This document shows, in pieces, positions 1,743-47,870 of a stretch of 47,870 nucleotides of DNA (the first letter of the stretch is position 1; each line of letters opens with the position of its first letter). Source of the stretch: Conidiobolus incongruus B7586. Taxonomy: Eukaryota. Both the position numbers and the translations under genes were made by a program. The notes beneath the pieces are model-generated. The model saw only the letters and a program-made list of their open reading frames with translations, had not been told where the DNA came from and did no database searches. The stretch is taken from positions 1-47,870 of the forward strand of contig JNEM01009166.1 in assembly GCA_000697335.1 (NCBI GenBank). The letters are read 5' to 3'.

Positions 1743-1914
1743 TGTGAATCTTTAAAAAAAATATTTAAAAAAATTAAGTATTGATTGATTGAAATTGGCT
1801 GAATATTCAAGTGATATTTTGTATGGATAAACAATGAATTTTGGGAATTAATCTAAATTCTAAGCTGACGTAGTGTGGACATTGATAATTGGATATTGAA
1901 TCTTTTCTTATCAA

Positions 1915-1922
1915 TCCCATAA
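1915..1922 (+). promoter_or_regulatory. Recurrent oriented promoter motif TCCCATAA (representative copy, upstream of RPB12)
   Basis: Exact intergenic copies at 1915, 5444-5451(-), 15333, 21189, 23434-23441(-), 29420, 34021 and 46996-47003(-), each on the sense strand of the downstream gene. Confidence 0.7.
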
Positions 1923-2006
1923 TTGTAACTTTGATATTGAAAACTGAAGAGGGGTTTATATTAACCTAAATTTGGTATTGAAAAAAATAAGAATTTCACA
2001 TTGAAA

Positions 2007-2225
2007 ATGTCTAATCTTCCAGAAAACAAACGTGGTGATTTAAACCAACTTGAATTGAAAACAGACCCCAGTACCGACCCTCCAGGTCACCTTCGTTATA
2101 TTTGTTCCGATTGTGGTAACCACAACCTCTTGAGCAGCAGCTCTCCCTTAAGATGTGCCAAATGTGCCCACCGTGTTCTTTTCAAATTCCGTACCAGACG
2201 TATGGTTCAATTTGAAGCTCGTTAA
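2007..2225 (+). CDS. RPB12: RNA polymerase I/II/III shared subunit RPABC4 (Rpb12/Rpc10), intronless
   Basis: Zn ribbon YICSDC...RCAKCAHRVLFKFRTRRMVQFEAR with the canonical QFEAR end. First ATG is at 2007 (the ORF track starts at TTG 2001). Confidence 0.95.
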   Translation: MSNLPENKRGDLNQLELKTDPSTDPPGHLRYICSDCGNHNLLSSSSPLRCAKCAHRVLFKFRTRRMVQFEAR

Positions 2226-2952
2226 AACCATCTTATTTAAAATTAATCTACATATATTAGTTTATGTTCCAATTAATACTTTAAATCTCTCCTGATAGTA
2301 ATAAATTCTGTAAAATATGATAGACAAATTGATATTGTTAATATATTTCAAATCCTTACTAGTTCCTATTATAATGAATTTATAGATTATTGTATTATTA
2401 ACTCAATGTCAGCATATATATTATCACTTATTTTTTAGACCCTTAATTTAATAATTAATTCCAGTTTGCCTATTTATATATTTACAATATTAGTAACTGG
2501 TTTATTTTAAAATATTTTATGTTTAGTAATATTATAAAGACTTTACAATATTTAGCTCAATAAATAATACTATCCATTCTATTTATTCACTATTTTCATT
2601 TATCAATTACTTATATCTAAGAAATATTATTAATAGTAGAACACAGCTAAAATAATATTGGTGATTTAAAAATTATTATTAAATCAGGTTTAATTCATTT
2701 AATTTTTTACAATTTTTTGAAATATAGTAATTAGTATCTAATATTTATTTATTAATAAAAAAATTATCATTGTTTTATGTAAAAATAGTGCGAAATTAAA
2801 TGAATAATATTATTATCGTATATCTCATTGTATAATTTTATTTGAAAATTAAAACATAATTATAATATATAAAATGACTTAAGTAAAACTCTAGTTATAT
2901 GTATATAAAACGCAACTAATACAATCTATTAAGTGGTCTATAAATTAAATGA

Positions 2953-5355
2953 TTAACGTCTCTTTTTCTTTCCTTTAGCAGCTTGACGTTTCTCAGCTCT
3001 TAATTCTTTCTTCATACGAGGATCAACCATTTTGTAACGACCTTTGACACCGTTTGGTCTACCCTTAATTCCTTTAGCGCTACCCTTAGCAACAACCAAC
3101 TTGACCTTGGATTTCTTGGTGGGTTTAGCTTTCTTAGTCATTAGTTTTTCAATCGTTGAAGCCTTCTCCTTCTCTGTCATATCTTCACTGTCGGCAATTT
3201 GAGAAGCTTTCTTAGTCAATTTAGCTAAGCGTTGAGCTGCCTTGAGCTTCTTTCTAGCTTTAGCTTCGGCAATCTTCTTAATGGGGCGAGCATCCAAAGC
3301 CTTCATTCTATCGCGGAATTCCCTGACAGCCTCCTTGGTGACAGGAAGAATAGGGCGATAGTGTTGCTTTTCATCGTCTAAGAACCAAGCGGGAAGATTT
3401 TCGGAATCATTAAAAGAATAACGGTTGAAACCGTCGTCAATGACTTCAGCTGTCGTCTTCTGTTTGTTAACAATTTGCATAGCCAATGTCAAGGCTTCTG
3501 GAGTATCTAAATCTAATTCTTTCTGCTCTTTCTCCAATTGTTTTTGAGCAGCAATATCGATGGCTTGCTTTTTGGATTCTAATTCATCATCAGACTCAGC
3601 TTCATCAAGGTCAGAAAATTGATCTTCATTTTCATTATTTTGAGTCGATTTTTGGGACTTTTCGAGCTTGCGCTTTTTAGAGGTAGTGGTGCTATCGATA
3701 TATTGGTGATCTAAGGAGTTAAAGATGGGTTGATCAAAGAACATAGAAGCTGATGATGACAATTGGTTCGATGGTTTTTCACTAGTTTCGGCATCTGAAT
3801 CAGAATCAGAGTCAGAATCGTCAATGACTTCTTTATTAGGATAACCGCCAGCATCGTCAGAGTCATCAGTGTCAACATCGTGGGCAGCGTCTTCACCAAA
3901 TCCATGCCATTCTTCATACTTCTTCATCGATTCTCTCAAATGTTGCTTACGGTCATTCATTTTAGATTGGTAATGTTCGTACATAGCATCAAGTGAATCT
4001 CCGAGGCGATCTACTTCATCTTCGCTGTCAACCTCTTCATAATCCTCTTCAACTTCAGATTCAGAGTCAATTGACCTCATATCTTCTTCAGTATCCATAT
4101 TCCCAGAAAGAGCAGTAGCAAGCTTCTTGGAGTGAGATTTAGAGTCAGAATGGAAAGCAGATTCAGTTTGCTCCATACCAATATCAGTAGGAGTGATCAT
4201 ATTGAGTTGGAGTTTAACCATCTCTTTAGCTTTCTTCTCACGGACCTTACGCTTCTTTTTACGCTCTTGAGCACGAGCTTGTTCGGCCAATTTTTCGAGT
4301 TCTTCAGCAATATCAATCTCTTCGACAGTTTCAACTTTTTCGGCATCATCTTTCTTTTCAGGCTCAGGATTCAATTTCTTGACCATTTTAGTGCGCCATT
4401 TCAAGAGTTCTTTGAAATCTTTTTTGCCTAATACTTTAAGATCTTTACAGATGTCTTTGATATCTTCAGTGGTGAGTGGATCATTGAATAAAGGTTTGCT
4501 GAATTCAGAGTCGAAAACTAAAGAATTTAAACCAACTAAAAATGCTATAGGGTCTTCAGCCTCAATGAATTTTTGAATATCTTCGGTCTTATATTGAGTG
4601 TAGTTTCCATCTTCGTAACCATCACGGTGTCTAGTCTTTTTGGTAACTTCAAAGATGTTCAAAGATGAAGCGGGCTTGGAAGCTAAATCATTTTCTAATT
4701 CTTTGAAGACATATTTAGGATCTAAAAATTTGGGATCGATCTTTTTGGGGGCTAAGAAATCTCTACAAACAACGAAAATTTCTGCAGAAACATTACGAGA
4801 GGATGGAGGTTTTGTAGCTTCAACTTTAGTGAAAAGTTGGTTAAAAATCCAGATCAAGTTGTTGTAATCCTTAGAACGGAAAACTTTGGTAACAAAAGTA
4901 CCACCCTTGGTCAAAAATTCAACAGCTAATTTGAAAGACATTAATACTAATTCGGACTGAGTGTAGGCATCTTGAAGCCAAGCAGTACCGACATTAGGAG
5001 CACCATCATGAATAACTACATCAGCTTTCCAAGTCTTTAAAGTGGCACGAAGTTGAGAACGACATTTTTCCGTAGTAATGTCTTCTTGGAAAGTAATACA
5101 GTTATGGATAGGTTTGATAGGACACAAGTCAACACCGACAATCAAACTTTCCATAGGCATATATTTGGCTGCAACCTGCAACCAACCACCAGGAGCTGCA
5201 CAAAGATCGATTAAACATCTTGCGCTACTTAAAAAGTCATATTTCTTATTGAGTTGAATTAATTTGAAAGCGGCACGGGAACGATAACCTTGTTCTTTGG
5301 CAAAGTGATAGTACTTATCCAAACGTCCCTTTCCGACCTTTTTTTTAACACCCAT
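2953..5355 (-). CDS. SPB1: 27S pre-rRNA 2'-O-methyltransferase Spb1 (FtsJ family), intronless
   Basis: GKGRLDKYY...GYRSRAAFKL, SAM motif DLCAAPGGW, HDGAPNVG, KPPSSRNVSAE; C-terminus GVKGRYKMVDPRMKKELRA. Confidence 0.97.
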   Translation of the reverse strand: MGVKKKVGKGRLDKYYHFAKEQGYRSRAAFKLIQLNKKYDFLSSARCLIDLCAAPGGWLQVAAKYMPMESLIVGVDLCPIKPIHNCITFQEDITTEKCRSQLRATLKTWKADVVIHDGAPNVGTAWLQDAYTQSELVLMSFKLAVEFLTKGGTFVTKVFRSKDYNNLIWIFNQLFTKVEATKPPSSRNVSAEIFVVCRDFLAPKKIDPKFLDPKYVFKELENDLASKPASSLNIFEVTKKTRHRDGYEDGNYTQYKTEDIQKFIEAEDPIAFLVGLNSLVFDSEFSKPLFNDPLTTEDIKDICKDLKVLGKKDFKELLKWRTKMVKKLNPEPEKKDDAEKVETVEEIDIAEELEKLAEQARAQERKKKRKVREKKAKEMVKLQLNMITPTDIGMEQTESAFHSDSKSHSKKLATALSGNMDTEEDMRSIDSESEVEEDYEEVDSEDEVDRLGDSLDAMYEHYQSKMNDRKQHLRESMKKYEEWHGFGEDAAHDVDTDDSDDAGGYPNKEVIDDSDSDSDSDAETSEKPSNQLSSSASMFFDQPIFNSLDHQYIDSTTTSKKRKLEKSQKSTQNNENEDQFSDLDEAESDDELESKKQAIDIAAQKQLEKEQKELDLDTPEALTLAMQIVNKQKTTAEVIDDGFNRYSFNDSENLPAWFLDDEKQHYRPILPVTKEAVREFRDRMKALDARPIKKIAEAKARKKLKAAQRLAKLTKKASQIADSEDMTEKEKASTIEKLMTKKAKPTKKSKVKLVVAKGSAKGIKGRPNGVKGRYKMVDPRMKKELRAEKRQAAKGKKKRR

Positions 5356-6287
5356 TTTTTAATTTTCTTTATATATTTAATGAATGTCAATTTTTATAAT
5401 ATTTTTGTAGAAGCCTTTTGTATTGTTACTATTTGTAATAATTTTATGGGACATTAAATGTTTATTCCTAATTTTTAATGATTCAAATATCTTCTCTTAA
5501 TAGTATATCTATAATAATTTTATTAAAAAAGAAAAATACATTGATTCTGAATCAAATATCTGTTAGCATATAATAACTCAAAACACTAATACTATGTTGG
5601 TCATTAATATCAGTGATTATTGGTTAAATATTCATAATAAAAAAATTTTGAAAATATAATTAATAGTTAAATTTGGAAACCTCATTAGTTATAATAATTT
5701 CTTATAATTTTAAAATTATGCAAATTATATAAATATTTAAATCATGGTTAGGAATCAATATTTTTTAATAATAATGGATAATATATATTTACGAATTTAT
5801 TATATCTGTTAAAATTTACTAAAACTTAAAATGAATAAATCATCAAACCCATAATCAGTGTATATATTATAATGGTATATTTAAAAATTATTATATACCA
5901 ATATAAATCAATAATATATCACCCAATCCAAAATATTTTAAATAATTTGTAATACCATCTAAGAATACCCATTTCACTCTACGCCGAAATTTAATAATTA
6001 TTAATTACATGAATATGATTCAATGATTTTGATTTTAAAATAATGATATTATGATATAATGTGGTCGATGAAAAAAATCTAGAGTTGGTTATAATGATAT
6101 TTCAGTATGGACAATATATATATTATACAGTTATCTGATAAGATTGGTGATACATATATAAATGGTAGTATGCTGAAGAAAAAATAAAAGATCAAATGAA
6201 TTTTTTTATAAGTCAAAACAATTGAATCAAAAATGAGAATTATATATGGATAATGCCATTCAGATGCTATAAATTCACAAATTTCAA

Positions 6288-6360
6288 GGGGAATTAGCTC
6301 AAATGGTAGAGCGCTCGCTTAGCATGCGAGAGGCACGGGGATCGATACCCCGATTCTCCA
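6288..6360 (+). tRNA. tRNA-Ala (anticodon AGC), intronless
   Basis: GGGGAAT/ATTCTCC acceptor stem with discriminator A; D arm AGCTCAAATGGTAGAGC; anticodon arm CTCGC-TTAGCAT-GCGAG; T loop GGATCGATACC (the ATCG variant seen in eukaryotic tRNA-Ala). Confidence 0.97.
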
Positions 6361-6365
6361 TTTTT
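6361..6365 (+). terminator. RNA polymerase III oligo-T terminator of tRNA-Ala
   Basis: Run of 5 T immediately after the discriminator base. Confidence 0.8.
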
Positions 6366-6752
6366 AAATGGTTGATAATTAGGGAATGATACTCTTCAAA
6401 TTAATTTTCAATACAATTTTCAAATTAAAATATTACAATATATATATTTTATTTTATTTATATTCTGATGTTCAAAATTTTTAATATATTTGAAAAATCA
6501 GAAATTAAAAAAAGTACTATTTTCTTATTTTCTAACCTTATATTTAATAGATTCATTTCTTGAATTTTGTTGATTTTTGAATATTTAATGGTGTTGGATA
6601 ATTTCAATTCCTAATACTTATTACTTGGGATAAGGTTTATATGAATTTATTGTTCTAGTATTATGGGGTTTGAAATAAATTGTAAACAATTACTGCTACT
6701 AAAATAATCTGAAATTTTATACTCTTTATTACAATATAGACCAAGGAATTAA

Positions 6753-9520: not shown

Positions 9521-11631
9521 GGAATTCAAACAATGAATACTGGATTTTTTTTTGGTTAATGGGTTTATTTATTGTCATTTATTCCTTTCTGAATAATAAA
9601 ATGTGGGATTAATTGATGATGCCATTCTTAAAATTATGATCAAATTTAAACTAAGTAATTTTAATATATTAGTTTCCTTAATTGTATTAATAAATGGTTG
9701 ATAAATTCTTAAATTCTTAAATTCTTAAATTATAAATTTAAAATACACATTACTATATTGATATTAAAAGAGTAAATTGTTATTTTATTATATTTATTAT
9801 AAACGATATTCTAATTGCTATATAAGAACTTCGTAACGATATATTCCTAAAAATTATTCATAAATAAAAAGGCATTCAGATATTATATATGGAAATAAAT
9901 CCATACTAAATTTATATTATTATTGATAGTGAATGAAGTTTAAAATATCACATTATGATATTATACAATATAGTCATATGTCACATTTTGTAAATACCAT
10001 GAATTATTTAGAAAGCATTATAATGGTAAAATGTAATAGCTGATATATATAATATATGATATTAAATTAATAATATATTGAATGAAATATTGATAAATAT
10101 TAAAATTAGTTTTATTAGATATTATATATATTCAAGATTACTAAACATCTTAATTTAATAAACCAGCAATGGTTTTATTTGATCATTTTATATATAAACT
10201 CACTTACACATCATTGAGAGACAACTACTCAAATTTAAAACAATTTGAGTATTGTATTTGATTGAATTTTTTTCATAACTTTAAATATATTGCTTCTGAT
10301 AAATTAACAATAATGACATCAAAGTTAAAATTCAATGATTATCACAATTTATTAAATTCATAATATTAGAATTGATGCTCAATTATTATAATAATTTGAA
10401 TATTGATAATTCATTCAAAATAATTACAATAATCATAACTAAGATTCAATTTTCGTTTTAAGTTATAATATCAAATTGTTTGTACTTTATATTCGATATA
10501 TAAATAATGAAAGTTTCGATTTTTTAACAGAAAATAACTGTTTAAAAATTATCATTATATATATTACTAATTAATATTTAAAAATACCTCATATGTTGAA
10601 AGAAATTAATATGTTTAGATGTATTTCTTAATAATTATAATTATTTAATTGATTCCATATTTTAAAATGACTATTGATTGAAAAATTTTCATAGATGGAT
10701 TTTAAAGATCTATATCAATCAAATTTAGAATTTCAAATATTATATTGAAAATATAAATATATAATGTATTATAATTATGAATTCAAATTTGTTCTGTTAA
10801 ACCATCAAAAATATTGAATATATCAGGATGAATATTAAATATTAATCGTTAGACAGCTATACTTTTAATAGAGTATAAATTTAATCTGATATCTTAATAG
10901 AAACAATTGTAACAGAGTGTAAAAATTTAAAGTATTGTTAGAACAGCAGTTACCTGAATTAAAACTGAAAATTCATTATTCCATATAGATAATAGATTCA
11001 ACTATAAATGTATTTTTATATCAAATTCCTAGAAATATTATATCGTTAACAAGATTAATCTTTATTAACCTTTTTAGAATATTAAACTCATGTAATACAA
11101 ATTTATCAATTAATGATCATAGAATTTCAAATATATTGAATGTATGAATTAATATTAATGCAAACTATATATAATAAAAACCAAATTAGAAAAGATAAGG
11201 AAATAATGATATCAAAATAAATTTTATATACTGGGTAATGAAAGTATTAAATTACTGCATGAGTTGCAATCAATTTTATTATAGCAAATGGGAGTGTAAA
11301 GTTTCATGAGGAATAAGAAAAAAAATCATATATAGTACAAGATTTTAATTTTAGAGGAGATGAAGGGATTGGGGATAAAAATACATTAGAAAGGTAGATT
11401 TATTTTAGGGAAGGAGAATAGTCAAAATAATAATTAAAGATTATACGTCACTTCGAAATAGATAAATTTAGAGAGGAAGAGGGAGAGTCTATGACGTAAA
11501 TAAAAGGGGAATTTTTAAAACATAGTATAATAATAAAGGAACAAGTGCAAATGATATTCATTAATGAAGGATATTATAAACTACGTTATTGATAACAAAT
11601 AACGAATTTATGAATAATTGGACTTAGCTAT

Positions 11632-15431: not shown

Positions 15432-16807
15432 ATGAATAAACCTGAAGATCTTCATTCTACAAGTTATCGTCCAATTCTTACTGCAAAAGTATCTAATCTA
15501 AAACCTTTGATGACTCTCTTAAGGGGAGTTCATTTCAAAGAAGTAATTATCTTACAATTATTTTGAATTATTTTACTGATCATCATATTTGTTATCAGAA
15601 AGCTAATTTTGCCATTAGTGAAGATGGCATTAGCATTATTATAGAAGAGAGTAAATGTTTTCAAGGTCATTCAGTATTAAAGAAAAATCTTTTTGAGCAG
15701 TATGATTTTTTCCCAGATAGAGATAGATTTCAGCACCTTCATCAAAATGATTTTATTAGTCCTAATCCTCCTTCCAAGCCTGCTATTTCTTTTGCCATCA
15801 ACCTAGATACATTAATTCAATGTATTCTTCTTTACAGCGCTGGACCAAGAGCTACTTACTCTAGCAATAGTGTTGCTTTTGGGATTAACGATCAAATCGC
15901 TAATCGAACCGAACCTAATCACACTTTCCCTTTGAATACCGTTGCAGGAACTCCTACTCATCTAACAGGAAACAAAACATCTGTGCAATTTTTATACGGC
16001 TCTGAATTGGATCCTAAATTAGTTGTAGTGTAGGTTAGCTCTTTCATTATATAGTTTGTTATTAATTTTATTACTCTAGAATTGAAGAAAATGGAGTTGT
16101 TTCCAAGTGTATATTGCCTACTTTTGAAATAGAATATTTTGAACCTTTAGTTATAAATCGAGAAATTGTTTCTAATAGGATAGTGATTCATGTACTTGAT
16201 ATATCAAATAATATTAACTTCATTTAATTTAATTATATTTAGTCAGATTTACTGAAAAAATCTATACTCAGCTTGGATGATTCTGCAACCTATATTACTT
16301 TATGCATCAGTCCATCAAGTCCTCATATTAGGCTACAATCCTCAGGCTCTACAGGATATTCAGAAGTAATTCAATTGATATTATTTAATATATGCTAATT
16401 TCTAATTTTATTACAGATTAATATGAGTATTGGACCTAATATCGAAGTGTTTTGTGGAGATCACTTTCCAAGGAATTTTTCGTAAGTTTGCTTATAAAAA
16501 TATGTAAATATGGTATTAAGTCTCTTCAATAGGTATAAATTTCACCAATTTTTGTATTTAATTAAAGCTTTGAGCTTATGTCAAATTACTCGTGTAGAAC
16601 TCGAATCTACAGGGTTATTATTGGTTCAAGTAATATTATATTTATACTAATTGCATTTCAATAATGTTAAATTATACATAGGCACTTATGTTTGGTGAAA
16701 CAAATAACAGCTTGGTGGAATTCTATGTAAGTTGATTTTTTTAATATTTATTTCATTAATTAATTTCGAAATTGATTTAGTTCATACCAGAAAGTGAGGT
16801 ACATTAA
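15432..16807 (+). CDS. RAD1: 9-1-1 checkpoint clamp subunit Rad1/Rec1 (S. cerevisiae Rad17 ortholog), multi-exon
   Basis: ILTAKVSNLKPLMTLLRGVHFKE-KANFAISEDGISIIIEESKCFQGH.....LFEQY matches the Rad1-family N-terminus. Later exons read KALSLCQITRVELESTGLLLVQ and VEFY-FIP; stop TAA at 16805-16807. Confidence 0.88.
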
Positions 16808-17585
16808 TTCAATCGAACAGATCTTTGTCGATACGAATTAGTTAATAAAACACCTTTTATTGATCTTAATACAGACTCAATTTGCTGAACTTGGGATTTT
16901 TGATTCAAATGATTCTGTTCATTTTGATAAGATTGTCCAATTAACTGAATTTTAGTGTCTCTTAAATCCTCTCTTAGATCAAATATTATCTCTTTTCTTC
17001 TATATTGAATTTTGACTAATTCTTGATTAAGCTCAGCCATCCTCTTGATAACATTATCATGAGCTTCAGAATTAATATTAAAATGCAGTCCCTTCTTAGT
17101 CAATTGATTCATTTTGGTTGTAGTGTAATGTTCCTGCTTTTTCTTCCTTAGATTCCTTGAGATTAATTTGCAATATATTTTAGAATACTAAAAATATATA
17201 AGATTAGTATTATGTTATATAATTCTTTAACTTTATATAATTACTAATAAGTAAATAATCCAAGATAATAAACCCGAAGTCTGTAAGAATTTGATAATGA
17301 AATCAATAGATATGAGTTTTTTAAACATTAATTGAACCAAGGCAGTAGTGAAACTCGATTTTGTACTTGACCTAATACTATCATAAATACTGACTATTTA
17401 TTTAAAATATCATATTCACATACCTTTTAAGATATATATCGAATATTTGATGCTATAATTGATGATCATTAACATTGGTTCACATATGATGAATATAGTC
17501 AAATTACCCAATAATTTGAATTTGTATGCATTTTGTTAAGATTGAGCTGGTGATACCAAAAATTTGCCATAAGTTGATTTGTCAT
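16804..17585 (-). CDS. Hypothetical ~205-aa protein with a hydrophobic segment and C-terminal coiled coil (4 exons)
   Basis: Exons 17585-17508, 17452-17424, 17371-17245 and 17187-16804 join in phase through 52-57 nt GT-AG introns into one open frame. No family recognised. Confidence 0.6.
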
Positions 17586-17914
17586 AATGATGATATTAAT
17601 TCAATAGTTGTACTTTGAACAACAACTTAGTAATCTATGAGGGTTAATATTTATATTGTTTATTGATGAAATCAACTTTTGAGTAGTTTACAATTTGAAA
17701 ATTAAAAAACTTGTTAGATAGTTCCCATTATATCTAATTATGGTAGTATTCGAGTTACATCAAATGGGATGTTATTGATACCACCAATTTCGATCATTTA
17801 TCAACCAAAATATAGTACGATTTTATTGGATATTATGATAGGAATATTGTTAATTAAGAGTCATTAAATAACAAAAATAATTTAATATTAACTCATAAAA
17901 GATTTATTTACATA

Positions 17915-20209
17915 TTAAAAAAATGACTGAAACTTGGAATACTTGTTCTGTTTTGTTAAAGCATTACTCATATGTCTTGATATGAATCCTGGCCAACAGT
18001 CAACAGGTAATTGATGATGAATGACACACTGTTCATAGAGCGACTGAACAGGTATATCGGGTATTTGGGAATCACTAGCTTCGTTATTCGTTTTAAAGTT
18101 CATCTAATAATATTTAATACTTGCTTTAAATATAAAGTAGTTTTATAATTACCTTAACACATAAAGCTAAAGAATAAAAATAGAGCTATAAAATGAATAT
18201 TATATATGCATATTCTGATTATAGTATTATTTATAATCACCTGTTTAAGCTTTTCAACTTCATCTACATGTCTTTGGATATCAAATTGTCCCTAAATAGA
18301 TGATTAGGTTAAATTGTATAATAACAGAACATATTAATATACCAAAAATTCTTCTTCAGCAGGATTTTTTTTAGCATTATCTGATGGTGTAAATAATCTT
18401 AACTGAGAAATTCTTTCAACAAGTTCTAATCTCTTATTTTGCTCATCATCGAGAGCTTTTGTCATACTTGCAATTTTTTCATCAGTAGTAACAGTTAAAG
18501 CATGAACCATCTGAAATTTATTAATTTCCATGATAACAAGCTTACTATAATTATAAATAATTTACCTGTTCTAGAGAATTGATAGTCGTATTGGCAACTT
18601 CTAGCTGTAATTGGAGCTGTCTCATAGAGAGTGCATTCTGAAATACATTGATTTAATTAATAAATTTAAATAATAATAATAATAATATTAATAATAAATG
18701 TCTTACTTTAGAAACAGATACCATACGATCAGCTTGCGTTTTATATTCTGCTAATAAGTCTATAATATCAAAGTATTATTTCGATATTTATATGATATAT
18801 GAGAATATTTGTAATTACCAGAAGGATGATAAAATAACATATCATCAGGAACTAATTCCTTATTGAAATTAGATTTAATAGGCCAGTAAGGATCACTCGA
18901 ATAATACTTAAAACTTAAGTGAGGGCCTAAAGTCGAACTCTCTCTGAGTTTTCCATTTTTATGAAAGTAGGTCACTATAATACGGTGTTTTCCCCTATTC
19001 AAAGTAACTTTTCCCTCTTTTTCTTTATTATAATGCTATCAACATATATATTAATGAAATGTTATTGAATCAAATAATAATTAAAAATTACCACTCCATC
19101 ATTTGAGATAATTGGTTTGTCCATATTTTCAACAAATAGTTCACTACCATCATTACTTTCTAAATAGAATAAATGACTGCCTGATTTTGGAATATGTAAA
19201 TATGCTGTATATTTTACAGCAAAATTTCCTAATTCTTTAATGATTACTTAGTTAAATAATATCATTATATAATATATGGTGATAATCACCTATATCGGGA
19301 ACTTCGGTATTAGGTTCCATGAAATCTGATTTCTCAGTTAACAAACCAATTGAAATATTAGGAACAACTCCAACACTCTAAATTAAATATTAATAAACCT
19401 TGGATATTTATCATTAATAAAGCTTTTACAGTTGGTATCAGTTGATCAAAATTTGGCAACTCGCTAAATTCACCTCTATAATACTCATAAACAACCCCAG
19501 GCTGGCATTCTTTTAAGTCGATGCCTTCGTGTTGAGATAATTCATTAGTATTAATAGTACTAGAGATCATGGAACTTCTATCCGACTAAATAACAATTAA
19601 CCAAATTTTTAAGAATACATAAAATAGAAATACCGTAGTATATTGATGGTGACAGAGTTCAGCGTGCCTTCGCATATTCTTTCTAGACACCTGCTGGTTA
19701 CATCTCGGATGAATACAAGGAATAAAACGTTCTAAACACTCAGTTTCCAAATGATATGTAAAATTCTTTTTTAATAAAATTTCTTCACATGTTAAACATT
19801 TCACTCTTAATTCCTGTAACTGTGACTCGACAGAGTCACTGGAGAAATATTGACTTGAGTGCGTTTTACATAGAGGACATAATAAATCCAAGTCGGGTAC
19901 CAATGAATTATTTCTCGAGTGACTGGAAAGATGGGGACTATTATTCAACGCTTGGTCTAAACTAATGGCTTTGGGTGTTTTTTGTTTGAGTTTGTTCGAT
20001 TTTTTGGTTTGCTTAGAATGAATTGAAAATGTATCTGCTTGAGGTGGTGGCGAAAGAGGTGGAGACGTAACAGATACCCAGCCAAAAACACATTCAGAGC
20101 AAAAAGTATGATTACAGCTCAATGTAATCGGATTTAAATAAGGATTAGAACATAGTGGACAAAGCAATTTAGGTTCAACGTAATCTACATAGATATACAA
20201 ATCTTCCAT
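17915..20209 (-). CDS. RING finger + TRAF-type zinc fingers + PA14 domain + coiled-coil protein (~579 aa, 11 exons); putative E3 ubiquitin ligase
   Basis: C3HC4 RING (CPLC..CNH..CSEC..CPLC); TRAF Zn finger CIHPRC...HAELC; PA14 motifs GVVYEYY, NFAVKYTAYLHIP.SG...FYLESNDGSELF, ISNDGVH...EKEGKVTL.RGKHRI.V.YF. All 10 introns are GT-AG and phase-consistent. Confidence 0.88.
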
Positions 20210-21295: not shown

Positions 21296-22424
21296 ATGCT
21301 AAAACAATTTATCGCACCAAAATATAGTGGTTATTCTGTAAGAAATCTAATCAATTTGTATTTAATACATAATTAATCATATTTTTAGTTGCAATTTAGT
21401 CCTTTTTATGAACATAAATTAGCAGTTGTAGGGGCTGCCAACTATGGTTTAATAGGTAATGGTCAGCTATTAATCTTAGAAGATACTCCTGGTGATATAG
21501 TAGTTCAAAATGGGTAATTATTAACTTTTCAATTACCTGTATTTGTTTAATTAACATTACTAAAAACTTAGTTTTGAAACACAGGATGGCTTATTTGATG
21601 TGAGTTGGAGTGAAATCAATGAACATCAGCTTGTCACAGCTTGTGGTGACGGCTCTATTAAACTTTGGGATATTAATTTAAAGGTTTATTACTTTTTAAT
21701 ATTTATTTAAAAATATAAAAAATGACTAATTTATTTTTAGAATCATCCAATTCGCAATTGGCATGAGCATAAAAAAGAAGTTATGGGAGTAAACTGGAAT
21801 CCAGTTAAAAAAGATCAATTTGTCTCAGCTTCTTGGGATCAATCAATTAAAGTTTGGAATCCAGAAATTGGTAACTCGCTTGTAACCTTTGTGGGCCATC
21901 AACAATGTGTATACTCTGCAATGTGGTCACCCCATAATCCAGATTTGTTAGCATCTTGTTCAGGGGATCAACAATTAAAGATTTGGGATACTAAATCACC
22001 TAAGGGTGCAGTCCAATCAATTCATGCCCATTTAAATGAGATACTTTCATTAGACTGGAACAAATATGAACCTTCTCAAGTTGTTACCGCCTCAGTTGAT
22101 CATACCGTTAAAGCGTGGGATTTAAGAGACTTAAGAAGAGAACTTTGCTCTTTCAAATGCCATGATTATGCTATTAGAAGAGTTAAATGCTCGCCTCATG
22201 CCAATGGAGTTATTGGAACTGCTTCTTATGATATGACCGCTAGACTTTGGGATCTCAACCGACTAAATGGAGGCCATAATCCCGCTTTATATGTTCATGA
22301 CGTCCATTCAGAATTCGTACTCGGATTGGATTTCAATTTATACGTACCTGGGCAGATTGCTACATGTAGTTGGGATGAAAGAGTGAATATTTTCATGGTT
22401 CCTGAATTAGCTAAACAAGGATAA
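21296..22424 (+). CDS. PEX7: Peroxisomal PTS2 receptor Pex7 (WD40), multi-exon
   Basis: [84 protein letters not shown]. Confidence 0.95.
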
Positions 22425-23323: not shown

Positions 23324-23525
23324 GTTTTATAATTTAAGTAATGGTTATATTTGATCTTAAAATAATATTTTCTATCTGCATTTATATTTTATTGAATAAA
23401 AATGTTTATATATTTGATAATAAATAGAGGGAATTATGGGATTTTTTTAAAAATTACTATTTTTGTGACTAAATATCTTCTATAAGACAAAATTGATAAG
23501 AACTATTATTAAATAAGCTGTAAAC

Positions 23526-23557: not shown

Positions 23558-23560
<3 letters not shown>

Positions 23561-29052: not shown

Positions 29053-29386
29053 TGTCACGGGCCGGAGAACCCGTTCGTCCTTAACAATTCAATTCATTCG
29101 AGAACCCCGTCACAGATCCACCTGCAACATGACCACAAAATACACCCGAGCAATGCAATCAATCGTTCCATCCGACGTACGGTTCGTACGCTGGGAAGAC
29201 ACGTTAAGCAAACTATAAATATGCCGACTACAACCAAGTTAGCACGTCGGTCCTCTTCCTAGGGTACAGCCCAATAATCCAGGTTAAACAATAAATTACC
29301 CCTTTTATATCACCAAACAGGAGCCGTCCCGGAAGACGACTATTTACTTAAAAGTTATTGGACACTTGACTTCCCAGCCAGTATCA
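29053..29386 (+). mobile_element. Solo LTR (334 bp), probably Ty3/Gypsy-type
   Basis: GC-richer island starting TGTCAC and ending GTATCA (TG...CA), flanked by ATAT at 29049-29052 and 29387-29390. Internal TATAAATA (29214) is followed by AATAAA (29290); GAGAACCC(C)GT is repeated in the 5' part. Confidence 0.75.
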
Positions 29387-29607
29387 ATATATTAGTTAAA
29401 TATTAGATAATTTAACATATCCCATAATTACTTTGGCTGAATTAAATTATATTTATTGAAATTAAATAAAGTCCGAATAGATATTTAATGTATATTCAAT
29501 TAATATATCTCAAAATATATTTCGCACATTACTACTATAACAAAATATTTAAACACACATTTTAATCAATAATTATAATTTACCTTTTTTTAATTCTTTC
29601 TTAATTG

Positions 29608-31326: not shown

Positions 31327-31971
31327 CACTTGTTATTATACATTTATTTTTTAATGATCAATAAATTTTTATATTAATATTCAATATTATGTAAATATCC
31401 ATATCAATGAAACTATCTAATTTATTTATTGTTACAATATAACGATATTTTTCTATACTATTTTCAATTTGATTTAATTTTATATTGTAGACTAAATAAT
31501 GTGACAATTTTTCATTTTTAGATAGTAGACATTATACTTATATGACTAAAATAATTTAGCTTCTTGGTTAAATAATTGGGAAAATTTTTAAATTTAATCA
31601 ATACAATCCAAATGATTCATATGTGAAGTTATACATTTTGTTTGTTTAAATCCTAACAGTTCAGTACATATTTGAGAGAGTAGCTAAGCATTATTATATG
31701 GTGTCTGTTTACTTATTCAACAATCTGTCCTAATACTAAATATATACCAAATTCATTCATTACAGTGATTTAATATAAGAATCATAAAATACTCTAACAT
31801 ATATAAGGATAATTGGAGTAGTGATAAAAATAACTAAACTTAAACGTATAACTTAATAGGTTAAACCTCAAACCGGTTCCATTTAATATTGGTTCAGAAC
31901 AAATATATAGTTATCAGTTTCCTCAGTTTTGATCCAACTACGTTTTTAATTTGATTCACTTACATATCATC

Positions 31972-32523: not shown

Positions 32524-34085
32524 TTATTTGAATCATTCATTTATATTTAATTTATTCATCAATCACTTTAAAATTATAGCTTTTACTTCGTTATTATTAT
32601 TATTATTATATATTTAATAAATTGAGTATTTAATCATATCAACTGAGTCAATATCCATTCTTTATGTATAATTGTCCTGCTTATATGGTTAAATTGATTT
32701 AATCTGTCTAGTATTTTTTATTTGTAATACTATTGATAACTATCTCTTCTACCCTTTAATTTATAAACTTGTTATTATGAGATAAATTCACATATCAAAT
32801 ATATTATTTAATCTTGATATATTTTTGGCTTTTGTTGTGTTTTTATATTAAGTTTTATAAATATAGGTCATAGTTAGAAAAGTACTCAAAATATAATTTA
32901 GTAAATTATTTATTGATCCTGCTCTTTAACATATCAAGACTGTAGGTTTGAAACTTACTGTTGAGGTGTTGTAGCAGAATATCCAAAGAGAAAAAAATTT
33001 TCTTCTATCTTTATCTCTTTTGGGTTTAAATAGTTGCTTAAATGAATGATATGGGATTTGAATATAATCTAATAAAGAAAACAAAGTGAACAAAGAGTAT
33101 CCTTCAATTATAGACTGACAAAGCCATCTTAAATTAGAAATAATATTGGTTTAACTATCACAATAGAGTAAATGATTAAATTTAAAATACAACACTTTAT
33201 TAAAGTAGTATATTAATTTGGGATTGTATTTACTTACTGTAGTTCTTTTGTGAATTAAATTCAGAATTACTTTACATCAGATTTTTGTTAATAATTAACT
33301 GATCTTATGTATTAAAATTATAGGCAATAAACATTGTTTAATAACTTTGAATCTTTAATAGTATTAACATATCCAAAATTCAATCGTAGGTTATTTTACT
33401 CTCTGACATTATTAATTTTACATATTAAGCAACTATTGTATATCAAGCTTTATATTATGAATTGAATGGAATCTTCAATCAACTGAAATAAAAATCAAGT
33501 TAATAGACAAACAAATATTTTATATTATATTTAAAATTATTTTATTTCAATTGAAATTTTTATTAATGTCTTTAAAATAAACCTTGAATTACAAATAATA
33601 TAAACTCACCTATTACTCGAAAACTATGTCACTATTCAAGTTGCAGTGTATCAAAGTATTCAGTTTTCAATTATAAATCTATCAATTAGGTATTTTAATA
33701 TATCGAGTCAAAAATTCCTTGAAATTGATTAGTATCTAAACCATTTTCAAACACTTTTTATGTAAAATATATAATAAACTATTACTAATTGAATGACTGA
33801 TCATTCAAATTCACCAGCTAAAATAAATTTTCCTTTTTTATCTCAACCTTTACCAATTAATTTATAGTTTTTAATCACATTGAATTGATATTATTATATA
33901 ATGGTATCAATATCAATAAAATTAAAATAATTATAAAACAATTGATATTTTTATTAATTAATGATTATAAGTTCAAATAAAATCAATTAAATAAAATATT
34001 TGAAAATATTATTATTATAATCCCATAAAAGATTTAATCTAATATAATTTATATAAACTTAAGATAGTGTAATATCAAAATTAAG

Positions 34086-34319
34086 ACCTTAGTAAGTCCT
34101 TAAACTGCTAACACCATTCCATACCCCATAATAACATTTACAATCCCCTCCCACTCTTAAGTATACTGTTATTACTTTATCCCCAATAACTCCCAATACA
34201 AACAAAACCCTTAACTCTGGAACCGTATCTTTGGGTAGATCCCACAAGTTACGGATCAATATATTCTGCAAAATATCGCTTTTATTCGTCCTTAGGTCTA
34301 ATAAAAATCTTCTTCATTC
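34086..34319 (+). mobile_element. 234-bp insertion flanked by a 15-bp direct repeat; probable 5'-truncated non-LTR retroelement (LINE/SINE 3' end)
   Basis: AATATCAAAATTAAG at 34071-34085 and again at 34320-34334. The insert is C-rich, has a stem-loop near 34220-34257, and ends AATAAA...TCTTCTTCATTC. Confidence 0.68.
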
Positions 34320-34358
34320 AATATCAAAATTAAGTCATCAAATACATTCATTATAACT

Positions 34359-39599: not shown

Positions 39600-42500
39600 T
39601 CTAAGGTAATAGATGGGATTAAATGTGTACATGAAGTTTATATAATGATTTGAATTCATTGAATTATTTTATAATTAGAAGGTTCTTTGTGCTGAAGAAT
39701 GTCAAAATTAATAAAATCTTCAAAATGAAATGAAGGGATTTGAAGTTAATTGACTCTCTGATAAGAGTTATAAATGCAAATTAGAATCAAATGAACCAAT
39801 TCTTGAAGTGTTATCAAATTTTCTATATTTCAAGATTGAAAATATATTTAATTTGGAGGACAAGTTTCTTGTATCAATTTTAAGTTTTTGGTGTATACAA
39901 ATCCAACACATTGTCAAGAAGTTAATTTGTCATTTCACTGATTTGCAACTCCCTTTGGATATACCACTATCCCCATATGCATTATACGAAATACCTGTTC
40001 AAGAATTACTCACTAAATTAGCTACGCAGCTGGCCAAAAGTTGTTTATTATTGGCTAATTATATAGTAGATCATATTAAGTCAAAAATTTTCACTTCTGA
40101 TCAAAATAACTAACAATGGTTGAAATTATTGCCGCCAAAAGACACTTATTACATTATCCAAGCGTGTATATTGACCTATATTCAGAGTCGATTACATCCT
40201 ATTAGTAACGTATTTTCAATATTGTATAAATTTGGAACTTACATTGAACTGTGTAATAAAATAAACTTTATATTAAATCATAATACTAATCAACTATAAA
40301 ATACCGAACAAAAACACTAATTCTATTTCAAAAATCTTTTGAACTTAGTAAAGCTCACAAGTCCAATTTAGCCCTTCTGATTATTTTATCCTTTGGTTTT
40401 CCTTGTGATAGGAATTAGTGGTCAAATAGTATCATAATTATTCCTTAGTTAATTTATTATTCAGTACAAAAATTATCATAAATTAATTGGGTTAAAGTTC
40501 ATTTTTACAGGATCATTCTCTCATTTTTGTGGATCAGAGTTTATCGACTATAAATTTAATGATTTGTGAAGGTTTCAAATTTTGTTAAGGAGCAATAAAG
40601 AAACAGAGTAACTATCTAATTATTTACTATTATTCATTTAGTAATAGCATAGTTTTTTGGGTCAAAATCAATGAAATTACTCAACTCACAATAACTTTAC
40701 AAGATAAAATTACCATCATTGATGGACCAATTACCATCGAAAGAGCCAACTTTAATATTTTCTAAAACTAGCACTGTGCTGTATCAATTGAGTAAAGTCA
40801 TTTGTCAATGGATTAAATTGTTGCATACGAAAAAAAGTGAATTAAAGAATAAGTTAGCTATATCGCCTACTAGAAATTTGGATCAAATTGTTCATCCCTA
40901 GAATATTTCCTCAATTAATTCCTTTGATTTGTTTATATGTATCTCTAATTAATGTATTTATGCATTTAGAGTGATATAGAACTCTATTTAGAAAGCAATT
41001 GGATCAGTTTATGAGCGTATTTTGTAAAAGAGTATCTTTATATTGTATTTTATCCATGTATTATCTCAATTATGTTCAAGTTGCATACATTATCACAGAT
41101 CCTACAAACCATCCTATAACTATCAGCTACATCCAATCTATTGGGATTGCACATTACAATTTCAAACAATTTGATCAAACTTCATCCTAGTTCAAACATT
41201 GAAATAGTAAAGAAATACTTCTAAATGAATTTATGCGACAAAGACTTTCAAAAGGCAAAATCATTATTCCATATCATAAGCTTCTACTTAACCAAAAGTC
41301 AAGCTAACTCATACGGCCTTGCATGAGCTAAAAACTACATCGACAACATTTTAACTAAATTCAACTCCAGTTTTGCTTACTCCGCATTCACCATCATTCT
41401 ACTATGCATTGGCGAAGACGATTTCACCATCGAACAAGTCTATAGCTTAGCAAAAATCATCATCAATTCAAAAAATTCAATCACTCATACCTTAAATCCA
41501 GATTAGAATAGGATTTAAATTCAAATTCACATCACAGCCCACTTATCCTAATAATTTTCTAAAGAAAGATTCAACCCACGCTCAATTTATGTCCTTATAT
41601 ACAAGATATCAAATAACATCACAATTGACCAAACAACTGGATGAATTAATCAAAGCTAGGAAGTTTCAATTAAAGAAATCTCATATGTATTTGGATATGA
41701 TACTTCAAGTGAAATTTTCTCAAATACATAATTTCTGACAATTCAACTAAATTTATTAATAATTTTGAAGGGAGATGGTTTGTTGAATATGAATTCGACG
41801 CATTTATTAACAAGTGTTGGTGAGTTAATTAATTTAATAGTATTGTTAATTAAAACTATTCATTCAAGTATTAATTAATTTATTAGTATTATTCATATTA
41901 CCACTATCACAATCCTAGTATCATTATTGAAGTATAAAATGATTGCTTTGATATATCTATTGGGACTAGTGGATCACAAAATTAGCTTTCAATACATAAA
42001 ACTTCTATTGAATGTACTCAATTTATCTAAAACTCTACCCAATTATCATGATAACAAGCTTTAAACTAGCCCCAAAGACTTTTACTTAATGAAATAGCTT
42101 AAATCTCAAGTACCGAACTAATCAAATTAATCATTAGGTCGTTAAATTTGGGACCTTATTACCTCTATCTAATCCAACCCATCTACAGTCTACTCAATTT
42201 AATCACACAACCCAACTTCAATATTCTATATTAGCTCAGTTTTAAATTATTTTTAAATATATCTTCAACCTTCCTCATTAAAGAATACCTCTCTATTTGT
42301 ACAAATATTGATGAAATGCAGAGATAATATTCGTGATAAACAAGATACGGATTTAGAATTAATTACTTGGTATTGATTGAATTTTGTACAATGATTATAA
42401 TATGAGAGATATGGGAAATCAATGGTGAATATTAATTCTTGTTTGTTATTCAAAATAATATTAACTCATTCATAATAGTCAAATTGTACTTCAATACCTC

Positions 42501-45500
42501 AAACAGCTCATCAAATCCCATTCCAATGTCACCAAACTGGGGTCCATTCCCATGACTTAACATATCTATTTAACATTCTCACATTATTTTTTAACCAAAG
42601 CAAATATTAATTCTGGTTTAAAGTTAGCCTCAAGAGCGTCTTATGCGTCGTGACATTTGCAGAATATTTGATTGGGGCAGAGTACCAATATGTCGAGTGT
42701 TTATAGGAGCAATTGTTTTGATAAAGGCTTGTTCAACTTGTATTGGAATTTCCCAAATTTGGGTTATTTTGAGATAATATAATTTATATTATTTATTATT
42801 TACTTACGCATTTAATATAGTCAATAATTATAAGTTTTCAACTTGTAATTGAATCTTACAAAATCAGAGGCAGCTACCAACTTGCTCATATATATGTCCA
42901 CATGGAATTGACCTCTCTAAAACTACAAATTTCATCACAAATTAAATTTTTGAAATTTAATAATGATTCTAATTTTCATTTAATTACCGACTAAGAATGC
43001 CAATTAAATCAATTATTCACCCAATTTTCAAAAGTAATTCAATTATAATCTATCATAAATATATTATAATTAATATCTAGAATTCTTCCATTGACAACTT
43101 TCATCATATTTCCTCCATTTGGGAAATTCTGGTGAAATACTAGCTCGAAGTGTTTGAATTTATAGCTTCTCACTTCGGTTTTCATTTTATTTCAGATGGT
43201 TAACTCAATTAGATACCGCCTTAGATCTATCTGATATAAATATACACTGTGACGATATGACTGTTAATGTACCTTTTGATAAGATATTAGCACTTAACAG
43301 TAATGATGTATTATTAAGCTTAAACTAATACTAATATCATTTTAGATTCAAATGACATATTACCGTCTGGAAAATTTTCTACGATATCGAATTGGATGTG
43401 ATCAGATTTCGTTACTGGATTCATATACTCAAGTATAATATCTTCGATGAGGACATATTAAAACTAACTAACTTTCTGAAAAGAATTTTATAATTTAATT
43501 TTTGAGAAATCCAAACTAATTCAAGGAATTACAATTTTATAAAATTGTAGTATTTTTGGTCGTTTAATGAATTGTTGTAAGTTTTATACTTATTATTTTT
43601 ATTATTATTTATTTATTTAATTATATTTTAGTTTAGAATTTGCCTATCTCTTTAAAATATCTAGACTGTTTATTAATAGTCATGAAGACATTTTAATTGC
43701 ACTAATAACATCAGCTTTATAATTTAGATTAGCTTTTGACATACTTTCCATACTCATTCCACTAAGCTATTTTATATATAATATAAAAATCGTTAGAGAA
43801 ATATTTTTAAATATATCATAGTTGATGATGATTATAGGGTTTTCAAATCATCAAATCGATTTCTAGTCTCATATAATACTAAGTTCCTTTTACCTGTTCA
43901 AGAGTAAAGGTATAGCATTCTCTAGAAGTATATTAGATACTGTCATTAATCCCAATGACAGCTTGAGAGCTTTGTCCAAATAGCAAAATACTATTGAATT
44001 GAATACTCCTTCATCCTATTGTAAGTCGAGTCTACCCCAAAATCAAATCAACGATGCAATTAGCAACTATTATAACATAATACCACAAGAGCCCTAATCA
44101 TTCTGGGATAATATGCTCACACTGCTACCAAAACGATGGGCAATCCCTTCCATTGATCATATTTTCGAATATAACGGTCTCATTCTCACCCAAGTAAACA
44201 TTTTGGAGATATCAATTTGGCCAGAATAACATTGGTCTAACTTACATTAATCCCAAAGGACTATAAAGATTTTTCCAAGCCCATATCAGGCTCCCCTCAC
44301 ACTCATGCTTACAATAAACTCGACAATATTATCATTGGAAATGCCTAACTCTCCAAAGTTGGTATAAATTGCATCATCAGAGATAACATGACCAACTGGT
44401 TGAACAGTCGTAAACTGTTAGATGACTAATTGAAGGACTTACTACACATGATCGAGCAGCTATGGCTTAGTGTTTTTAAAAGTTTTTTATTGCTAAATTT
44501 CAATCATATCTCCAAAGTAGAATTAGATACATTATGCAATAATATTAATCGTCTTAGTCAAAGGTTTGAAGCATAAGTTGAGTTCAGATGTTGAATCTCA
44601 TTTCAAAATCGATGTAGACAGAGGCTTAATTCAAAGTTTTATAAGAATTAAATATGATTTAACCATTTCAGGTATTGAGGGTATGTTAAGTTTGCTTATA
44701 GATACTATTAAATTGGCCTTTCATAGTGCATTCGAGATTCTGGGAGATGATCATATTATAATAATAATGATACCTCACAACTTTTTCAAAATTCGATCAA
44801 CTCGGAATTCGACATGAGTCGTAAAATCGATCATGTGATATTAATAATCGACAATTATTTGCAGCCTTTCCTATGGGAGAGTTTACCCTATATTTTGAAA
44901 ATTCAATGCCGAGGATATTTTTGTTAGCTCTGCTAAAAGAACAACTGATCCTGCTCTAGAAATTAAACAGTCACATCTCTTCTCAAAGAGGGTTCCATAT
45001 GAATATGGGCTCTACATAGACCTCGTCCGCACTCAAAATTACTTTTGTGAAGGTTTAAAGGCTCCTGGTTGGTGTGGTGCAATTGGCAAAACTACAGACG
45101 AAGATACTCTTTAACTTTACTTAACTGCTTCTCTATATCTTTATTTTGGCCACGGAACGAGAGAGCAATGCCTAAAGTGGCTTGAGATACAGCGTATAAC
45201 GCCTGCGACCACTGCTATTCTATTCAACTGTTCATCAAGTCACGTTAAATTCTAAGGAGAATTTGAAGGATCAGTGGCCACTTGCCACTGTTTTCTTGCA
45301 TGCAGTTTTTGCAGTCCTTGCCAATTTGTGGGATGTGGCAAATATAAATATTGATAAATTGTTTCACAAGTTACTAGTATTGTGAGAGTTTGAAACTTTC
45401 AGAAAAATTACTATAATCGATGGCAACGACGTCATGAACGGTCACAATCTCGATGAAACTTTATCTCGGTCTTTGGCACTCTACAAATCACAGTCAGCTT

Positions 45501-45568
45501 TTGTTTAAAAACATCTAGTAGATGCTGTTCCTGTCGTGTATAGTTTGCTTGTTTACATTCAGAAATAA
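39600..45568 (+). pseudogene. ESP1: Decayed separase (peptidase C50, Esp1/Cut1) gene; 5' boundary approximate
   Basis: Manual translation gives, in separase order: LLPKRWAIPSI (~44140), W.NSRKLLDD*LKDLL..IEQLWLSVFKS (~44400-44485), HVILIIDNYLQPFLWESLP (~44830-44890), LYLYFGHG (His 45151), ILFNCSS (Cys 45229), GEFEG, VLANLWDV...IDK, AVPVVYSLLVY*. In-frame stops at 44427, 45112 and 45253 and a frameshift near 45310. Confidence 0.85.
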
Positions 45569-45696
45569 AAATTTCAATCCAATAAAATATATAAAATAAC
45601 TATATATTCAAATTTGGTAAATGTGAAAAATTTATTATTGAACATAAAAATCATGTGAATATAAACAGAATTTAGTTATAAAAGAATATAAAATTT

Positions 45697-46800
45697 TTAA
45701 TTTAAAATGTATTTGGTATACTGAGTAATCTCATTGGGGATGCTGGACATGAGCTGAGAGACATAATTGACATCAGCCATTAGGGAAAGGTCGTCGCCAC
45801 AATTGGATCGCTAAAGTAAAGAATAGTTAATATTTAACTAATATTAACAAGGTTGATTGACTTACTTGTTTTACATAAGAGTATTCGCAATGCTTGGACG
45901 AATACTCCTTAACGATATAGTTAGTTGAAAAATCATGATACAATCGAGTATCATTGATTTGAAATAATACATCATCTACGCGCAAAAAGTAGCGCTGGAG
46001 TACCAGAAAACAACTGGGCATAACCCTCTTTTATAAAAAATGAATTATATAGATAAATAATATAAAAGTGTATTAATTTACCACTTTCACACTAAGAATA
46101 GCCGAACCATTGTCACCTAATTCATCTTCAAAGAGGACGTTCTCGTTATAAAAGAGAATAGGATCAGGTTTTTTTAATTTATCAATATCAATCCTTTCCG
46201 TACAGTTTTCAACGATCTAATATAATAAATTTAAGTATTATTGATAAAAAAATCAATTATATAATATACTTGAATATTTTCAGAATTAAGACAAGTACCA
46301 GAATATGGAGTCCTATAAGTCCAATCGTAGGATTTACCTTTATACTTGATCTCTTCCCAATCGGAACTAAAAATGAGTTAGAATATGCAAAAGAAAATAT
46401 TTAAAAGAAATTACCGTTCTTTCGCCCATTCCTGAGCGTAAGACACTTTAAGATTGGCAGAGTTTGGTGAAGTATCCACCAGACTTAAAGCCTCAACAGT
46501 ATCAAATTGATACTTAAACTTTGTTGGTTTGTATTCAATAACCAACTTATTCCCACCAAAAATCATTTCTGGGACTGGAAATCCAAGTTTCTCTGTAATA
46601 CTAAGTTTTATTAAATAGAATAATGTTTAGCATAATGGAATTAGTTGTAAAATTTTATAAAATCACCTGTCTATTTCAGAGCTATTAGAAATAGGTAGTT
46701 TGGTCGATATTATTGACCAGTGATCGGAATGATATTGGTTTAAAGAATTGGAATTATTATATATGGTAGTAGCGTTAGTAGAAAATTGACTAGATGACAT
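45697..46800 (-). CDS. TIP41: TAP42-interacting protein Tip41/TIPRL, multi-exon
   Basis: LGFPVPEMIFG.N, YDWTY.TPY.G, DPILFY....LFEDELGDNG...LSVKV-RVMP.CF..L.RYFLRVD.VL..INDTRLY. Confidence 0.95.
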
Positions 46801-47870
46801 ATTATTCATTTTGGTATAATATAAATAAAACTTTATAATCAAATATATTTATTAAAAAAATTATTTTAATATTATATAATTTTATAATTTTGTTTTAATA
46901 TACTATTTTAATATATTGATTTTTTTTATTTTGAATTATATTTTTTTATCCTATAATCAATATTAATAAATCATTTAATTTGATTGTAATTTTTTTTATG
47001 GGATTAATTAATTTTTTTTATTTTGAATGGCCAAAAGACAGCATAACTAAAAATATATAACAAGAATCTCAAGATAAGAAAACAGGATTGGGTAAGATAA
47101 AATTAATTAACAAAATATATAATTTATTTTGTTATTTCTATAATTGAGATAATCTATTGAAGAGTTGAAAAGGTAAACAAAATGTTTTATGCAACTATTT
47201 TATATTCTTAAATTATACATCAGAAAAATAACTAAAAATAATAGCTTCAAAACAATAATGTATAATTTTCATTTATTCATCAAGTTTAAATATTATTACA
47301 TTTTTATTAAATGCTTAGAAATATAAAATGTTTTTTTAAAATTTAAAGGAACAATTGCAAGAATTCTAAGAGAGATTTAAATAGATCCTTTCCTAGATGT
47401 AAATTTTTAGTTTTTTTAAAGTTTAATATAGTCTATTCATATAGCAATGCATTCATTTAACTTTTCAATATTTTATCCTAAACTTTATCTATGTTTAGAG
47501 CAAAAAATCTAAAAATGAAATAAAGTTTAATACTGAATCTAATATATATAAATGTTCAAAAAATTACTTAAATTAACTGCCTTGAAATTATATTCAAACC
47601 AAAAATTAGAATATTGGAATTAATTATTTGGAGTTGAATTTACTTGCTGAATTTGTATATAGCTTTTGTTTTAAATTTCTTATTATAAAATAGTAATTAA
47701 TATTCAAATTATTTTGTTATTATTATTTTATTTAATACTTAGTTTAGAATTATAAATTTTAATTAATATTAATGATTTAAATATATATTTTGAATATTAA
47801 TTATTTTTATAATATTTTATATTAATATATAAATATAACGATATATAATTATATTTATAAACTAATAATT

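Follow-up and report, generated by a model that had tools for sequence, protein, structure and literature searches.

Lineage-specific sites for general promoter factors, biased in strand and position and associated with TATA-less promoters, are known from Drosophila (Motif 1/M1BP) and budding yeast (Reb1). Here we analyze an octamer, TCCCATAA, that recurs in one orientation upstream of genes on contig JNEM01009166.1 of the fungus Conidiobolus incongruus B7586 (positions 1 to 47,870; this whole stretch of 47,870 nucleotides is called the window below). The HomolD box of Schizosaccharomyces pombe (CAGTCACA/G) is bound by Rrn7 and lies 39 to 52 bp upstream of where transcription begins (the transcription start site, TSS) (PMC10253590), and the ZNF143/Staf site SBS1 of vertebrates (TTCCCATTATGCACCGCG) has its positional maximum some 70 bp upstream of the TSS and is enriched in bidirectional promoters (PMC3627581). 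Our literature search, outside of which lay subscription papers and most supplements, returned no published promoter element of this kind for the Entomophthoromycotina, and no publication that pairs TCCCATAA or its reverse complement with promoters. The bare letters of the octamer gave 1,096 literature hits, of which the 40 listed deal with other subjects, to judge by their titles. A Massospora paper limited its motif search to words of at least 25 bp before candidate genes. The element is apparently undescribed.

An oriented octamer before conserved genes

TCCCATAA occurs in 10 exact copies on the two strands of the window, 8 of them intergenic and 2 coding. All eight intergenic copies lie on the sense strand of the adjacent gene, 92 to 338 bp before its predicted ATG, with the places, strands, and distances given in a first-pass annotation of this DNA; the two variants that it listed, TCCCAAAA before SEC13 (104 bp) and TCCCACAT before CRS1 (88 bp), are also present at the claimed spacing. 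The motif or a close variant thereby precedes 10 of the 15 genes, oriented with the gene and mostly about 90 to 120 bp before the predicted start. Start codons are predictions throughout, and spacing is measured to the ATG, not to the TSS. The names SEC13, PEX7, and MET30 are labels of the earlier annotation that are compatible with the WD40 or F-box/WD40 domains present and are used here for putative orthologues.

1839..1846, minus strand: variant TCCCAAAA, 104 bp before the SEC13-like ATG (1742); WD40 gene by Pfam
1915..1922, plus strand: exact site, 92 bp before the RPB12 ATG (2007); PF03604
5444..5451, minus strand: exact site, 96 bp before the SPB1 ATG (5355)
9601..9608, minus strand: variant TCCCACAT, 88 bp before the cysteinyl-tRNA synthetase (CRS1) ATG (9520); PF01406
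15333..15340, plus strand: exact site, 99 bp before the RAD1 ATG (15432); PF02144
21189..21196, plus strand: exact site, 107 bp before the PEX7-like ATG (21296); WD40 by Pfam
21781..21788, minus strand: exact coding copy in a PEX7 exon, antisense to the gene
23434..23441, minus strand: exact site, 118 bp before the MRP49 ATG (23323); PF05047
25107..25114, plus strand: exact coding copy in F-box/WD40 (MET30-like) coding sequence, antisense to the gene
29420..29427, plus strand: exact site, 188 bp before the GPI17/PIG-S ATG (29608); PF10510
34021..34028, plus strand: exact site, 338 bp before the SDH5 ATG (34359), 89 bp without an insertion; PF03937
46996..47003, minus strand: exact site, 203 bp before the TIP41 ATG (46800); PF04176

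An in-frame ATG at 46809, 9 nt upstream of the predicted TIP41 start, may reduce the motif distance of this gene to 194 bp. The annotation had reported a single exact copy elsewhere, in MET30 coding sequence; two exist, the second being that in the PEX7 exon, and both coding copies (21781-21788 and 25107-25114) are likely to be chance occurrences.

The enrichment and spacing figures all describe one window with 15 genes. Over its length the 10 matches compare with 3.01 +/- 1.80 in 100 shuffles, none of which reaches 10. Because the motif was chosen after looking at the data, all 6- to 9-mers were ranked without bias by the number of sense upstream regions (15 regions of 360 bp) that contain each. 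With background orders 0 to 3, TCCCATAA comes first among the 8-mers, being found in 8 of 15 regions where 0.05 to 0.15 are expected (Bonferroni P from 1e-11 to 5e-8 for all 4^8 words under the four backgrounds); the 360-bp length was set so as to include SDH5 and biases the ranking slightly in the motif's favor. Sense-upstream regions make up 14% of intergenic strand-positions yet contain all eight intergenic copies (P = 1.8e-7), and 7 of the 10 distances from motif to ATG fall within a 31-bp band (scan P = 2.7e-4). The pentamer TCCCA alone occurs 24 times between genes, 14 times sense-upstream, never antisense-upstream only, and 10 times elsewhere. The promoter element is real as seen in this one window: the annotation's oriented promoter element is borne out as strand-specific and biased in spacing, while the likeness that it saw to ZNF143/Staf sites ends at TCCCA.

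Aligned, the 10 sites read A8 A8 in the two flanking positions and T10 C10 C10 C10 A10 T8 A10 A9 in the motif (base and number of sites). The word is nonpalindromic; five of its positions are invariant, and all 10 sites also have an A at +6. In full it is (A)TCCCATAA; its conserved flank consists only of AA at -2/-1, beyond which the left side is generally A-rich, the 20 bp preceding the motif having a G+C content (GC) of 13% and 52% A. One monomeric DNA-binding protein would be expected to leave such a pattern, a short, asymmetric, strongly fixed word present once per gene and direction. In 6 of 10 promoters the 120 bp following the motif contain no strict TATAWAW, and in the other 4 this element has no common offset.

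The claim that the element stands upstream of most housekeeping genes holds for 10 of 11 conserved genes of housekeeping type and fails for importin-beta, which lacks it and which the annotation had passed over; with none of the 4 other genes carrying the motif, Fisher's P is 0.004, and with exact copies only (8 of 11 versus 0 of 4) it is 0.03, the classes having been assigned post hoc in both counts. No copy of the TCCCA core lies within 360 bp upstream of the genes for importin-beta, the RING/TRAF protein, the F-box/WD40 protein, a small secreted protein, and asparaginase. The nearest TCCCAAAT to the motif-less RING/TRAF gene is 679 bp upstream. This gene (16804-20209, minus strand) has several exons, with RING and TRAF zinc fingers encoded first and later exons without a clear Pfam match.

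Promoter layout and a proposed role

The divergent SEC13/RPB12 promoter (264 bp) contains two motif copies back to back, one for each gene and directed toward it, with 69 bp between their 5' ends. In the longer divergent promoter of importin-beta and RAD1, the motif is found on the RAD1 side only. Between the two SEC13/RPB12 copies lies the word TGACGTAG (1866-1873), which we take to be ATF/CRE-like, and exon 1 of the SEC13-like gene (1740-1742) apparently consists of just the ATG, with an intron directly after it.

At two promoters an insertion is found within 65 bp of the motif, which is compatible with open chromatin. The one in the SDH5 promoter has shifted the motif from 89 to 338 bp before the ATG. 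Its boundaries are set by a perfect 15-bp direct repeat with a spacing of 249 bp, and the distance of 89 bp that had been claimed for the uninterrupted promoter is thereby confirmed.

34071..34334, no strand: SDH5-promoter insertion, 234 bp (34086-34319), GC 36%, between identical 15-bp repeats (34071-34085 and 34320-34334)
34240..34247, plus strand: variant TCCCACAA within the SDH5 insertion, 119 bp before the ATG, in the usual band

The TCCCACAA copy could by its position be a replacement site for SDH5. The sense strand of the inserted sequence (34086-34319) is C-rich, with several CCCA words, and none of its six frames is open; the 15-bp length of the target-site duplication suggests a non-LTR (long terminal repeat) retro-insertion. 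The other insertion is a 334-bp element (29053-29386), 33 bp upstream of the GPI17 motif, with about 46% GC, TG...CA ends, ATAT on both flanks, and no Rfam hit. By these features it is a candidate solo LTR.

The distances from motif to ATG have a hard floor (88, 89, 92, 96, 99, 104, 107, and 118 bp) and a tail (188 and 203 bp), and a lower limit of 88 bp combined with values reaching about 200 points to a constant interval between motif and TSS, followed by a 5' untranslated region (UTR) of variable length. Upstream ATGs point weakly in the same direction. The final 50 nt ahead of the start contain 1, compared with 7.8 expected from intergenic density (P = 0.004) and 4.6 from local shuffles (P = 0.05), while just after the motif there are 4 versus about 7 expected, where depletion is not clear.

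We consider it rather probable that the motif is the site of a directional general promoter factor, some 40 to 70 bp upstream of the TSS, at housekeeping genes. One putative sequence-specific general promoter factor would bind the motif in one orientation, would keep the promoter open, and would direct RNA polymerase II to start some 40 to 70 bp downstream at housekeeping genes. Three features of this model are inferred: the motif would function at the DNA level, transcription would start downstream of it, and it would take the place of a TATA box. The enrichment, the strand, the spacing, and the divergent promoter with one copy per gene all support a directional general-factor site. Several points weigh against it. 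The evidence base is one window of 15 genes; importin-beta (KAP95), a housekeeping gene, lacks any copy of the TCCCA core over the 700 bp upstream; the 10 aligned sites share no conserved second element at a fixed offset that would mark the TSS; the two zones do not differ significantly in their upstream ATGs (P = 0.15); and the initiator consensus BBCA+1BW fits 9 of 10 sites, so that the TSS could fall inside the motif itself.

Alternative readings and the binding factor

The last of these points defines the main rival, which the earlier core-promoter reading had left unconsidered. The motif would then be a lineage-specific initiator, with transcription starting at the A of CCA and the 85 to 200 nt to the ATG forming the 5' UTR. 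Such an element is strand-specific by nature, its 9 matching sites agree with the human initiator consensus (PMC5287114), and in microsporidia a CCC-like motif marks the start of genes, whose 5' UTRs are <7 nt long (PMC2803860). Yet BBCABW is short and easily matched, and the invariant TCCCA plus AA carries far more information than the degenerate human initiator. A start within the motif would also burden 6 of 10 housekeeping mRNAs (CRS1, RAD1, PEX7, MRP49, GPI17, and TIP41) with an upstream open reading frame (ORF), and no 5' UTR would be under 84 nt. We regard an initiator as unlikely, if the strongest of the competing explanations.

Less likely again is that a fungal CSL protein of the Cbf11/12 type uses these sites as a regulated activator of a gene set, as it does in fission yeast, the motif then not being a general promoter element. 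The motif reads TATGGGAT on the reverse strand, where the TGGGA core is present in 10 of 10 sites and a purine occupies CSL position 2 in 9 of 10, and binding by CSL is compatible with A at position 2 and with other bases at position 8 (PMC4176381). CSL genes are also reported in a zygomycete (PMC1973085). The CSL likeness proposed in the annotation holds for the core and fails for the strict consensus, with GTGRGAA and RTGGGAA each matched in 0 of 10 sites. Position 8 is T in eight sites and A in one: on the sense strand the base before the core is A in eight sites, T in one, and G in one, which is opposite to the CSL preference (A versus T, P = 0.04). The genes concerned are functionally unrelated, and strict orientation and spacing are, to our knowledge, not features of CSL sites. 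In fission yeast, by contrast, promoters bound by Cbf11 only were associated with lipid genes (PMC4569565).

The same likeness bears on the identity of the factor in a directional general-factor site. Only one named candidate, a CSL-family protein of shifted specificity, has a core that fits, and on the sequence of the sites we regard it as tentative, with the odds against it; if the factor is not CSL, it would be a zinc-finger protein or some other monomeric binder. The fuller proposition, that a CSL-family protein of Conidiobolus has been turned into a general, direction-giving factor of most housekeeping genes with the shifted site TTATGGGAT, is more speculative and would have to be called doubtful. 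A supplement on transcription factors of Conidiobolus coronatus (PMC12387763) leaves LAG1-DNAbind/BTD unnamed, its table containing almost only Pfam names that include the word "transcription."

Other binders were compared with the 10 sites. None has TCCCANN followed by ATGC, which makes ZNF143/Staf an unlikely binder, and none has the ACTACA extension of THAP11. ZNF143 is known from animals. K50 homeodomains recognize TAATCC, and a TAAT core before CC is present in just 3 of 10 sites. The telo-box was rejected on sequence.

It is also quite improbable that the motif acts as RNA, with UCCCAUAA, close to the mRNA 5' end, recognized by an RNA-binding protein or taking part in splicing. The strict sense-strand bias would suit any RNA element; the burden of upstream ORFs, however, is the same as for an initiator, and an RNA role does not account for the minimum of 88 nt before the ATG. 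A splicing branch point was rejected, the first AG after the motif occurring at scattered offsets of 9 to 64 nt, and a replication origin was rejected by reasoning, in that one site per gene, always oriented with the gene, does not fit. Finally, that the copies are chance or leftovers of a small mobile element, as could be argued from the post hoc choice of the motif, the very AT-rich genome, and the insertions near two sites, is already largely refuted and has next to no probability left, since the enrichment remains after correction for all 4^8 words with each of the four backgrounds, the flanks of the sites are unlike beyond a few bases, and no two sites are connected by any of the 20 largest direct-repeat families.

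Occurrence in relatives and comparison with known systems

SPB1 has 85% identity over 560 residues to SPB1 of C. coronatus, with the next best match at 58% and Massospora then at 54%, which places the host as a Conidiobolus-like entomophthoralean fungus and a close relative of C. coronatus. A metagenome scan with the SPB1 N terminus returned 47 loci with 29 to 69% GC, all from distant eukaryotes and none from a close relative. After 14 were dropped (match away from the N terminus or too little flank), 33 of the 47 could be compared upstream of SPB1. The exact word in sense was found in 0 of these 33 distant regions, many of which are near-duplicates; there were four relaxed matches, and the three inspected read as the coding region of a divergent neighbor. 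The absence from these regions is weak evidence that the motif may be restricted to a lineage.

Four DNA sequencing runs, all from one study, contain this stretch and may be its source; no RNA run was listed as containing it, which carries no information on expression. In contigs from sequencing runs covering 1400-6200 of the window, run X1 contains two haplotypes, one of which has 52 differences and 2 gaps over 5391-5692. This divergent stretch (302 bp, about 17%) covers the SPB1 motif site. The same run shows a collapsed piece at the 5' end of SPB1 and half-depth indels at 1720, 1780, 1985, and 4348; its two-haplotype pattern suggests heterozygosity or a hybrid. Runs X5 to X7 matched in short pieces only, none of them with a motif-bearing promoter of this interval.

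The window is AT-rich, with 20% GC between genes, and has many introns. Its content is 15 intact protein genes, most of whose families are backed by Pfam, one tRNA-Ala, and a decayed separase-like region. Rfam found the tRNA-Ala only in the window, and no RNA family accounts for the motif or the insertions. The decayed gene runs over about 39700-45500 on the plus strand and has many stops, and one piece of it matches Peptidase_C50 (separase; E = 2e-4); a separase pseudogene implies an intact copy elsewhere. On the minus strand, at 32930-33270, two GTAAGT donor-like sites (33237 and 32958) surround a 74-codon open frame without a significant Pfam match, and two near-motif words lie inside this region (33223 and 33056). 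The frame is possibly an unannotated spliced unit.

A near-invariant, oriented 8-mer before about two-thirds of genes would be an unusually dominant promoter signal for a fungus. The motif would aid the prediction of gene starts in these AT-rich genomes and offers a ready bait for finding its factor. In animals, CSL is the Notch effector. If the factor here is CSL, the motif bears on the role of CSL before Notch, a question posed in PMC1973085; if CSL were indeed the general factor, it would be a TATA substitute, and the system would permit a direct test of an ancestral, Notch-free role. If the factor is not CSL, the motif would be one more lineage-specific general-factor site, useful and of a familiar sort.

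Compared with Motif 1/M1BP and Reb1, the motif differs in sequence and, as far as known, in its factor. With the CSL element (GTG[G/A]GAA; Cbf11/Cbf12 in fungi) it shares the reverse-strand core TGGGA in 10 of 10 sites (PMC1973085, PMC4569565, and PMC4176381 for the CSL element). It departs from that element in its preference for T at position 8 and A at position 2 and in an extra conserved base outside the CSL octamer, and its targets are general, unlike the lipid genes described for fission-yeast Cbf11. The CCC-like signal of microsporidia is also a strand-specific C-triplet before most genes, in a lineage near the fungal base, but it stands directly before the ATG, with 5' UTRs of <7 nt (PMC2803860), whereas the motif is a fixed 8-mer at a distance of at least 88 bp. 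SBS1 and the motif have the TCCCAT core in common, and positional preference and enrichment in bidirectional promoters are features of ZNF143; the ATGC tail of SBS1 and the ACTACA extension of THAP11 are missing here from all 10 sites. HomolD is likewise an octamer of fungal promoters, described as serving ribosomal-protein and other genes at a fixed distance from the TSS, as a TATA analogue. Its sequence is unrelated and it is active in both orientations, whereas the copies described here are all in sense and are found before two-thirds of the window's genes, whose functions are unrelated. By analogy, the motif would work like HomolD and the vertebrate ZNF143 sites, and more loosely like the microsporidian signal, while by sequence it is a member of none of them.

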